From Omnitrophica bacterium RIFCSPLOWO2_01_FULL_45_10b (lineage in GTDB: Bacteria; Omnitrophota; Omnitrophia; Omnitrophales; Danuiimicrobiaceae), in the NCBI GenBank assembly GCA_001804205.1, contig MHFM01000009.1, positions 61,588-97,949 on the forward strand: 36,362 bases of DNA, given 5' to 3'. Within the stretch, counting starts at the first letter, position 1, and each line of letters begins with the position of its first letter. Shown piece after piece: positions 6,495 to 26,015 of the stretch. A program made the position numbers and the translations under genes. The notes below the pieces were generated by a model, which saw nothing but the letters and a program-made list of their open reading frames with translations, ran no database searches and had not been told where the DNA came from.

Positions 6495-6550
6495 AAATCC
6501 CTGCTTTGATTCCAGGGGTTTTCCTATGGATTTGCTTTTTTAAGATTGAT

Positions 6551-7111: not shown

Positions 7112-7132
7112 CAAATCCCCTCCCCGCTACCA
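7112..7132 (+). repeat. Exact 21-nt duplicate of the tRNA-Met 3' end (displaced 3' fragment, att-like)
   Basis: CAAATCCCCTCCCCGCTACCA at 7112-7132 is identical to 6962-6982. The 129 nt between them contain the stems GCCAGGCCT/AGGCCTGGC, CCCGT.GAGGAAC/GTTCCTCACGGG and CCTGCCGC/GCGGCAGG. Confidence 0.85.
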
Positions 7133-25059: not shown

Positions 25060-25162
25060 AAGCTAACGTTTTCCTCATCCCGCTTAAAAAATCATTCAGG
25101 ACAGCTTTTATAAAATCTGATATATTGTGCTGCGCTTATTAAAAGTACCTAACAAAAGCCGT

Positions 25163-25238: not shown

Positions 25239-25250
25239 GCTGGCGTAGCT
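25239..25250 (+). pseudogene. 5' fragment of a disrupted tRNA (acceptor strand + start of D arm)
   Basis: GCTGGCG-TA-GCT. GCTGGCG is the perfect complement of CGCCAGC at 25552-25558, and TAGCT matches the tRNA position 8-12 consensus. Confidence 0.45.
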
Positions 25251-25417
25251 TCCGCCACAAAGCGTGGCGAGACCCGTCCAAAACAACGCTTTGCGGACGG
25301 ACCTCGCCGCGTTGTTTGGCGGGCAGGGGCAGAGCAACGGTTTTGCCCCGAGCAAAAACGCTCGGGATCGACCGCGAGGAGTCCTGGGCCGCCGGAGCTG
25401 ATCGGAATAAACTATCT

Positions 25418-25492
25418 GCCGGTGTAGCTCAGGGGTAGAGCAGCTGTTTTGTAAACAGCATGTCGGGGGTTCAAATCCCTCCACCGGCTCCA
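25418..25492 (+). tRNA. tRNA-Thr (anticodon UGU), CCA encoded
   Basis: Acceptor GCCGGTG/CACCGGC, D arm GCTC/GAGC, anticodon arm GCTGT-TTTGTAA-ACAGC, T arm GGGGG-TTCAAAT-CCCTC. Confidence 0.9.
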
Positions 25493-25534
25493 TTGATTTC
25501 TCAGCTCCGGCGGAACACGGATAAACCGTGGGTT

Positions 25535-25559
25535 GGAGGTTCAAGTCCTCTCGCCAGCT
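25535..25559 (+). pseudogene. 3' fragment of the same disrupted tRNA (T arm + acceptor strand)
   Basis: GGAGG-TTCAAGT-CCTCT-CGCCAGC-T. The preceding CACGG-ATAAA-CCGTG hairpin has only a 5-nt loop, so no valid anticodon arm exists. Confidence 0.45.
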
Positions 25560-25560
25560 A

Positions 25561-25668
25561 GTTTAGTGGTTAGTGATCAGTGGTTAGTATTTAGCGAAAA
25601 GCCAAAAAGCGAAATGGTTCTAGCTACTTGCCACTAATCACTAGTCACTAGTTACTAATCACTACTCA
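25561..25668. repeat. Long imperfect hairpin built from tandem heptamers (NNTTAGT x5 / CACTAAT-type x5)
   Basis: Left arm: GTTTAGT GGTTAGT GATCAGT GGTTAGT ATTTAGC. Right arm: CACTAAT CACTAGT CACTAGT TACTAAT CACTACT. The arms are roughly complementary around a ~26-nt loop. Confidence 0.55.
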
Positions 25669-25669
25669 C

Positions 25670-25752
25670 GGGGAGTTACCCAAGTGGACAAAGGGGACAG
25701 ACTGTAAATCTGTTGGCTTCGGCCTTCAGTGGTTCGAATCCACTACTCCCCA
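25670..25752 (+). tRNA. tRNA-Tyr (anticodon GUA), long variable arm, CCA not encoded
   Basis: Acceptor GGGGAGT/ACTCCCC, anticodon arm ACAGA-CTGTAAA-TCTGT, variable arm GGCTTCGGCC, T arm AGTGG-TTCGAAT-CCACT. Confidence 0.9.
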
Positions 25753-26015
25753 TGTTTATGGTGAATGGTTCTCCGCCAAAGGACGGATCCGCCTCCGGTG
25801 GAGAACTCTTTACTTCCAGCTATCTATAGGTAAAATACATTTAATTCTTTTAATGCATGTGCCGAAACAATAGAAACCAAGTGAACGGCGGTCAATTTAA
25901 GATTTTTCCGGAACTTGCTGCATCCTTAAGTTCTGTCTTGCGAACAAGTTAGATAGAAATAAAGGGTGCAAATTCTTTGCGGCAAAGTCCGGCCGGTGAT
26001 TCACAAACTATTTAA

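Follow-up and report, generated by a model that had tools for sequence, protein, structure and literature searches.

A threonine tRNA gene nested in the broken remains of a gene for the same isoacceptor in an Omnitrophota genome

The subject of this study is a tRNA locus in a stretch of 36,362 nucleotides, herein the window, from Omnitrophica bacterium RIFCSPLOWO2_01_FULL_45_10b (contig MHFM01000009.1, positions 61,588 through 97,949 of the forward strand). At this locus an intact tRNA-Thr(UGU) gene lies between fragments of a second tRNA. The block they form (positions 25239 through 25559) is most probably the wreck of a resident tRNA-Thr(UGU) gene that was cut by two insertions and now holds its functional successor inside. 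The initial annotation of this DNA, made from the letters alone, had proposed that a tRNA gene was destroyed by a cassette carrying another tRNA; this proposal held up, since the joined fragments equal an intact orthologous gene in relatives and the insert holds a complete, different allele. What had escaped notice is that the outer gene encodes the same isoacceptor (UGU) as the inner one. The block is one case of a recurring, apparently undescribed form of tRNA-gene breakage in which small hairpin elements leave a substitute behind.

Searches were run in the window's own genome (G000), a metagenome-assembled genome of 1.84 Mb in 75 contigs that is 93% complete. Genome searching and joining of the matches resolve the outer tRNA into three pieces (a, b, and c; Table 1). 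Its ends, GCTGGCGTAGCT and GGAGG-TTCAAGT-CCTCT-CGCCAGC-T (25535 through 25559), had been described as the two halves of one tRNA; both sequences, like all others quoted in that annotation, are present at the coordinates given, and the two do belong to a single gene, but a third piece between them had been missed. Directly 3' of a 73-bp repeat, the tRNA restarts as CAGGGGCAGAGCAACGGTTTTG (piece b) and continues up to the second anticodon base. Joined, the three pieces make 72 nt, which ARAGORN folds into a perfect tRNA-Thr(tgt) cloverleaf with all stems intact. The gene is thus interrupted by 73 bp between D-stem nucleotides 12 and 13 (12/13) and by 176 bp between anticodon nucleotides 35 and 36 (35/36), and target duplication is absent at both inserts.

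The earlier objection that the outer tRNA has no valid anticodon arm, its loop being only 5 nt, falls because the arm continues from piece b: the 5' strand ACGGT and the loop start TTTG lie at 25336 through 25345, 5' of the second insert, and the arm is complete. The CACGG at 25516 through 25520 is the right edge of that insert and merely looks like an anticodon-stem partner. Similarly, what had been summarized as about 140 nt of hairpins is one member of the 73-bp repeat family, piece b, and the unique left arm of the second insert. As a contiguous cloverleaf, the outer tRNA was detected by neither cmscan (E ≤ 10) nor ARAGORN over 25100 through 25900; both recovered only the inner tRNA-Thr and the downstream tRNA-Tyr. 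A tmRNA-like reading of the outer ends was tried and rejected: the G3:U70 pair is lacking, the locus receives no tmRNA call from ARAGORN, and the one such call in the genome is on contig C75.

Table 1. Features of the tRNA-Thr block and its surroundings (positions in the window)
Feature	Position	Strand	Description
Candidate promoter	25098..25126	+	Sigma-70-type AGGACA-17-TATATT, TG-extended; upstream of whole block; predicted by consensus scan
Outer tRNA-Thr(UGU), piece a	25239..25250	+	Acceptor 5' strand GCTGGCG, U8, A9, D-stem G10-U12
Palindromic element (PE), insert 1	25251..25323		Self-complementary, TCCGCC...GGCGG(G); between D-stem nt 12 and 13 of outer gene; no target duplication
Outer tRNA-Thr(UGU), piece b	25324..25345	+	C13, D loop, D-stem 3' strand, nt 26, anticodon-stem 5' strand ACGGT, loop UU, anticodon U34 and G35
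Insert 2, with replacement tRNA	25346..25521	+	176 bp in anticodon loop, between nt 35 and 36; no target duplication
G+C-rich hairpin	25346..25366	+	CCCGAGC / GCTCGGG; abuts broken end of piece b
Inverted repeat, left arm	25389..25401	+	CCGCCGGAGCTGA; perfect 13 bp; starts CCGCC, typical of PE ends
Inner tRNA-Thr(UGU), intact	25418..25492	+	ARAGORN tRNA-Thr(TGT); Rfam tRNA 71.5 bits; acceptor GCCGGUG/CACCGGC; encoded CCA
Inverted repeat, right arm	25501..25513	+	TCAGCTCCGGCGG; perfect 13 bp; followed by A, as in PE ends (GGCGGA)
Outer tRNA-Thr(UGU), piece c	25522..25559	+	U36, A37, A38, anticodon-stem 3' strand, variable loop, T arm, acceptor 3' strand, discriminator U
tRNA-Tyr(GUA)	25670..25752	+	ARAGORN, Rfam; conserved downstream neighbor, anchors locus orthology

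The history of the outer gene is read from relatives in which the locus can be recognized by its neighbors. NnrD lies directly upstream of tRNA-Thr(TGT) and tRNA-Tyr in the congeneric genomes G001, G004, and G005 and, in another family, in G022 and G031; the window's genome has one extra response-regulator open reading frame (ORF) at this locus. Intact genes with the acceptor GCTGGCG, which the initial annotation had suggested seeking in related genomes, occupy the orthologous position in three of them and match the joined pieces at 69/72 (G005), 68/72 (G022), and 68/72 (G031) positions. Because the intact outer allele stands at the same place in these genomes, the fragments must once have formed one gene; homologous loci in which they never did had been named initially as a refutation, and these relatives show the opposite. 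Piece a equals nucleotides 1 through 12 of the intact gene and is identical in all three relatives, piece b agrees with the G005 gene except at 2 D-loop bases, and piece c, which has no encoded CCA, is 97% identical to all three. A search of 401 Omnitrophota genomes found the exact outer allele in just 3; its near variants serve as the normal gene of other families. Within a single genus, this one locus holds three different tRNA-Thr(UGU) alleles, and each is found either alive or as a shell.

The inner gene is the sole intact UGU-Thr gene in the assembly. It is identical to the outer gene at only 57/72 positions: two acceptor pairs are changed in a compensated manner, the anticodon stem and the T arm differ, and CCA is encoded. 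Its body is standard for the order (68/72 to the tRNA-Thr(TGT) of G024), and its acceptor (GCCGGTG/CACCGGC) differs by two compensated pairs and is common to the tRNA-Thr(CGT) of G002 (69/72). The inner gene is a different, complete allele that would now supply tRNA-Thr(UGU), and the outer pieces are presumably nonfunctional. The other reading offered initially, a SINE-like element with tRNA-derived ends, did not survive: the block is not repeated as a unit, and only the PE and generic tRNA sequence recur.

The insert that carries the inner gene has no ORF with a family match; its sole ORF (117 amino acids, minus strand, running across the tRNA) has no Pfam match. The cassette has no match in phage or plasmid sequences, none of 96 genomes of the order has its left arm, and its arms and the block ends are single-copy in the window's genome. 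Hairpins similar to the G+C-rich one at its left edge abut tRNA stumps at the tRNA-fMet locus of the window and at the tRNA-Gln locus of contig C18.

The perfect 13-bp inverted repeat that had been reported around the inner tRNA was confirmed. It is the longest such bracket among the 46 tRNA genes of the genome (the others are ≤9 bp and A+T-rich), and by our own estimate the chance expectation is ~1e-5 per tRNA. The repeat and its flanks have no copy in the 96 genomes of the order or in two public contig collections; a pattern search for the bracket gave one chance match, in a Gemmatimonadota kinase ORF, and none in metagenome contigs. Absence from all other copies or relatives had been named as the sign of a chance repeat; the absence is real, yet given the length of the bracket among the 46, the repeat is not chance. 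Since the first arm opens and the second closes as PE termini do (CCGCC...GGCGGA), the cassette resembles a hairpin of the PE type whose loop holds a tRNA and which the G+C-rich hairpin precedes. A processing role for the 13-bp stem, as first suggested, is speculative; comparison with the other tRNAs of the genome, the 96 genomes of the order, and the two contig collections gives no support for a conserved one. A 10-nt identity (CCGGAGCTGA / TCAGC-TCCGG) exists between the arms (25392 through 25401 and 25501 through 25510) and the tRNA-Arg(CCG) of contig C12, in its nearly palindromic anticodon arm (TCAGCCTCCGGAGCTGA); it is probably a coincidence.

The first insert belongs to a defined repeat family. 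The genome holds ~15 distinct copies of PE, each matching on both strands in nhmmer searches and ending TCCGCC...GGCGGA, which gives terminal inverted repeats of 6 bp; as DNA the element folds at −23.5 kcal/mol (z −4.0). Nine to 10 of the ~15 copies lie inside tRNA fragments, an extreme enrichment given that tRNA genes make up ~0.2% of the genome. Their positions are fixed: D-stem 12/13 at the Thr locus of the window, the Thr locus of C19, and the Gln locus of C18; the D loop of a tRNA-Arg on C12; T-loop nucleotides 56 and 57 (56/57) in fragments of tRNA-Gly (C1), tRNA-Ala (C21), tRNA-Leu (C42), and tRNA-Arg (C12); and the anticodon loops of fragments on C19 and C45. The junctions, TAGCT-PE-CAG and GGTTC-PE-RA, show no target-site duplication. 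A PE copy in a tRNA-Arg(TCG) stump of the congeneric G003 is 97% identical to the window copy, further copies occur in G003, G005, G008, G009, and G011, and the same 12/13 or 56/57 junctions are found in relatives. A metagenome scan for TAGCT followed by the PE start returned 18 matches, 11 of which are PE at 12/13 of 5' stumps; where these 11 contigs reach a tRNA, an intact gene (Thr or Arg-TCT) lies downstream of the PE stump. None of the intact tRNA genes of the window's genome contains PE. These observations suggest that PE prefers conserved sites of tRNA genes and survives in dead copies only.

An intron-like role, with PE interrupting a sole-copy tRNA, was considered and rejected, as no such gene was found; tRNA-Asn, tRNA-Ile(GAT), and tRNA-Ala(TGC) are simply missing from the assembly, and tRNA-Gln(CTG) runs into an N gap on C18. 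The missing tRNAs are likely due to the incomplete assembly and an unassembled rRNA operon. Just 3' of tRNA-Tyr, a hairpin at 25761 through 25813 starts GGTTC-TCCGCC, like the T-loop/PE junction, and may be a further short PE-type element. An unrelated and very abundant palindromic repeat, GTCATTCCC...GGGGATGAC, has a copy at 25162 through 25225 and dozens of matches in the genome and its relatives; one PE copy (C59:8236) lies inside such a repeat.

Nesting of one tRNA in another is repeated elsewhere in the genome and in its relatives. On contig C19, an intact tRNA-Thr(CGT) stands between pieces of another tRNA-Thr(CGT) with its own matching acceptor (GCCCATG/CGTGGGC), and the broken gene carries PE at 12/13 and is split at 35/36; a near-strain metagenome contig (L105) shows further layers of this nesting. 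In G005 the roles are swapped: the outer allele is alive, and the inner one is represented by a 3' stump (...CACCGGCTCCA) that lies 22 nt downstream and holds PE in the T loop. G031 has an intact copy of the outer allele, flanked by the 5' stump GCTGGCGTAG and the 3' stump ATAAACAGCATGTCGGGGGTTCGATTCCCTCCGCCAGCTC that remain from the order-standard allele, and this 3' stump starts at nucleotide 36; here the "outer" allele is itself the invader. G145, which belongs to another family, has a 5' stump upstream of the live gene; it terminates at G35 (...CTGTTTTG). The sequence ...GG-A precedes all three 3' stumps (window, C19, and G031), and breaks at 56/57 are seen in many tRNA stumps. A pattern search for 3' stumps allowing one mismatch returned mostly intact genes and added little.

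This recurrence bears on two alternatives. If tRNA-Thr genes had been duplicated locally in tandem and had then decayed and received hairpin insertions, the 5' and 3' remnants would stem from two former copies and no cassette would be needed. The stumps in G005 and on metagenome contig L098 are identical to the adjoining intact gene, as duplication predicts, and multiple alleles coexist at the locus within the genus. At the window locus, however, the remnants break at exactly complementary points (nucleotides 35 and 36), share one matching acceptor stem, and rebuild with neither overlap nor gap a gene 96% identical to the G005 orthologue; with the same 35/36 break at C19, G031, and G145, we regard duplication as very unlikely. 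An assembly artefact, in which two strain alleles of the locus were interleaved across repeated k-mers, could be suspected in a metagenome-assembled genome of 75 contigs with N gaps (at the C19 locus, for example) and with PE being a repeat. Independent assemblies and separate loci nonetheless show the same architecture (G003, G005, G031, G145, and several metagenome contigs), and the cassette arms are unique sequence. An exact-protein look-up with NnrD, which gave no other record, led to a public record of the genome (GCA_001804055.1, MHFF01000031.1) that is identical over 6.9 kb, the cassette locus included; the response regulator, used in the same way for strain variants, had no record. We therefore consider an artefact highly improbable.

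Further irregular tRNA arrangements were noted in passing. In the window, exact 3' stumps that begin at T-loop nucleotide 57 lie at 7112 through 7132 and 13067 through 13084, each ~130 nt downstream of its intact tRNA-Met gene (6906 through 6982 and 12863 through 12937, respectively). At C75:4849-5100, a second tRNA-Val(CAC) downstream of the intact one has a different but paired acceptor (GGCAGT/ACTGCC) and a D-loop insert of another type, consisting of two hairpins with A+T-rich loops, each ending CAG; this insert type is also found on C42 and C19 and in G005. Three tRNA-Arg(CCG) units lie in a row at C12:83380-83860: the first is intact, the second lacks the 5' acceptor strand and has PE in its D loop, and the third is a 3' fragment that has the exact sequence of the first and a PE copy in the T loop. 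On the minus strand of G031:C82 (L034), at ~840 through 1330, an ORF flanked by inverted repeats lies between a tRNA-Thr 3' stump and tRNA-Tyr; by eye it resembles the four-helix-bundle proteins of 23S rRNA intervening sequences.

Site-specific integration, the textbook source of tRNA fragments, offers another origin for the stumps. They could be attL/attR-type scars of islands or prophages whose tyrosine integrase used the anticodon or T loop and which were later almost wholly deleted. According to PMC9897764, which cites Williams 2002, tRNA fragments left by integration are common. The anticodon-loop breaks (35/36 here and at C19, G031, and G145) and T-loop breaks (56/57) fall at the classic integrase sublocations, and the genome holds 18 near-identical tRNA fragments, 9 of which begin at nucleotides 55 through 59 and some of which lie on contigs other than that of the parent gene. 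Against this, the 5' and 3' stumps in the window flank just 176 bp, and no direct repeat or core is present at the junctions, where the 5' stump runs through G35 and the 3' stump resumes with U36. The intact gene is no hybrid of host and element; it is a complete foreign allele with mutually matching halves. Only two tyrosine recombinase genes (PF00589; ~305 amino acids) were found in the genome, both on other contigs and both read as XerC/XerD-like. The locus neighbors are NnrD, the response regulator, a porin, and Wza/Wzc, with no recombinase in or beside the insert. A scar of this kind is, in our judgment, quite unlikely.

The genome has seven small GIY-YIG ORFs, and both of the two inspected lie among stumps and intact tRNAs. 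On C18 the order is tRNA-Gln nucleotides 1 through 12, PE, nucleotides 13 through 19, a GIY-YIG ORF, a second stump, hairpins, and an intact tRNA-Gln; at 6550 through 7132 of the window, a GIY-YIG ORF and the intact tRNA-fMet gene are enclosed by 5' and 3' stumps of that tRNA. The two ORFs lie at C18:12258-12458 and at about 6645 through 6905 of the window. By analogy, the tRNA-Thr locus can be viewed as the ORF-less counterpart of these layouts, and their likeness leads us to propose that a nuclease may act on it in trans. The 93%-complete genome gave no match to a Y1 (RAYT/IS200-type) transposase (PF01797).

The outer gene might instead be functional, with both inserts removed at the RNA level and the inner tRNA excised from the anticodon loop. 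All stems of the joined tRNA are intact, and the genome has an RtcB ligase gene. Folding of the block, which the initial annotation had recommended, gave a predicted structure (−167.6 kcal/mol, z −8.5) in which the outer acceptor stem closes around the block. RNase P and RNase Z, however, leave 3'-OH and 5'-phosphate ends, and RtcB does not join such ends. Moreover, neither a group I intron nor any other Rfam family was found in the inserts at E ≤ 10 over 25100 through 25900, the tRNA splicing endonuclease EndA (PF01974) was not found in the 93%-complete genome, one insert lies inside the D stem, and no sole-copy tRNA of the genome carries PE. The homologous stumps in G005, G031, and G145 are incomplete, which indicates that such shells decay. 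Splicing of the outer tRNA is, on this evidence, scarcely credible.

We thus favor destruction of the resident gene by a cassette bearing its replacement, and several points weigh against it. All three outer pieces are still perfect, which fits a very recent event and fits selection on the pieces equally well. The cassette flanks and inverted repeat are unique to this genome, so that no second copy of the cassette is at hand to prove movement; no enzyme is encoded in or beside the putatively mobile cassette. The 18 metagenome PE matches were picked by a pattern that already contained TAGCT and show recurrence, not exclusivity. Finally, G005 holds remnants of both alleles in a different order, which makes the history of the locus more complex than one insertion.

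The route by which the cassette arrived may be sketched as follows. The anticodon loop of tRNA-Thr would be opened by a break or insertion at a specific site, which would let in the cassette, and because the cassette brings its own copy of the gene that it destroys, the event would not be lethal. The dead shell could then tolerate PE copies, whose preferred conserved tRNA-gene sites would be lethal targets in live genes. The small GIY-YIG nucleases at other tRNA loci of the genome, acting in trans, would be the best enzyme candidates. Transcription probably enters from upstream, where the candidate promoter (Table 1) could possibly mark the start of a Thr-Tyr transcript, and RNase P and RNase Z would free the inner tRNA. 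Between the outer 3' stump and tRNA-Tyr, at 25561 through 25668, lies a long imperfect hairpin of tandem heptamers (TAGTGGT and ACTAATC types).

More broadly, we advance tentatively, as a plausible idea that we do not yet prefer to its negation, that Omnitrophota host an undescribed class of miniature "break-and-replace" elements: hairpin-ended cassettes that would open tRNA genes at 12/13, 35/36, and 56/57, carry a complete tRNA of the same isoacceptor, and be mobilized in trans, perhaps by small tRNA-linked GIY-YIG nucleases. If so, they would cause tRNA alleles to turn over rapidly between closely related species. A mobile cassette of this kind would be a selfish element whose targets are essential and universally conserved genes and which avoids lethality by carrying the replacement; to our knowledge, this strategy is known for homing endonucleases and integrative islands and not in the form of an ORF-less tRNA within a tRNA. 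It would also account for the differences in tRNA alleles, compensated acceptor-stem variants among them, between congeneric genomes and for the odd partial or duplicate tRNAs that tRNA finders return in uncultured lineages. The DNA of the old and new tRNA-Thr genes would offer a concrete substrate for testing the many uncharacterized small GIY-YIG proteins encoded beside tRNA genes. For annotation, 25239 through 25559 is better marked as a three-segment tRNA pseudogene around a live gene.

In our literature search no account emerged of bacterial tRNA genes that lie within a disrupted copy of themselves; several known systems come close. Genomic islands and prophages can integrate in a tRNA gene and restore it (Reiter 1989 and Williams 2002, both cited in PMC9897764). 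As at the tRNA-Thr locus, they target a tRNA gene, break it in the anticodon or T loop, keep a working tRNA, and leave a dead fragment. The present insert, in contrast, is 176 bp long, with no integrase and no attL/attR direct repeat, and it brings a whole new gene instead of completing the old one, so that both 5' and 3' stumps remain around it. SegB, a free-standing GIY-YIG homing endonuclease in the tRNA gene cluster of phage T4, causes nearby markers to be preferentially inherited (PMC2330249). It resembles the small GIY-YIG genes among the tRNA genes of this genome, which are found at other loci; the Thr cassette itself has no nuclease gene, resides in a bacterial chromosome and not in a phage, and represents nested replacement of a full gene with hairpin elements rather than co-conversion of flanks.

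PE is similar to repetitive extragenic palindromic (REP) sequences, bacterial interspersed mosaic elements (BIMEs), and repeats like miniature inverted-repeat transposable elements (MITEs) in being short, noncoding, multicopy, and strongly hairpin-forming, with terminal inverted repeats. Unlike MITEs it makes no target-site duplication, unlike the system of REP and REP-associated tyrosine transposases (RAYTs) it has no Y1 transposase to accompany it in this genome, and unlike both its copies are concentrated in tRNA fragments at fixed positions (12/13, 56/57, and 35/36). The disrupted tRNA genes of Archaea and red algae, whether intron-containing, split, or permuted, are functional and need a splicing endonuclease and bulge-helix-bulge motifs (PMC4390854, PMC3293823). 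They too are interrupted at noncanonical positions, including the D arm and the anticodon loop, whereas here the endonuclease was not found and a complete substitute gene lies inside. Group I introns in the anticodon loops of bacterial tRNA genes are intervening sequences of 200 to 300 nt; the Thr insert occupies the same loop but has no detected group I core and contains a complete tRNA instead. The case therefore shares a trait with tRNA-integrating islands, SegB, REP and MITE repeats, and archaeal disrupted tRNAs and lacks a defining feature of each. To these systems it adds the intact and shell states of the same alleles at syntenic positions in relatives and a defined PE family with fixed insertion positions in tRNA genes.

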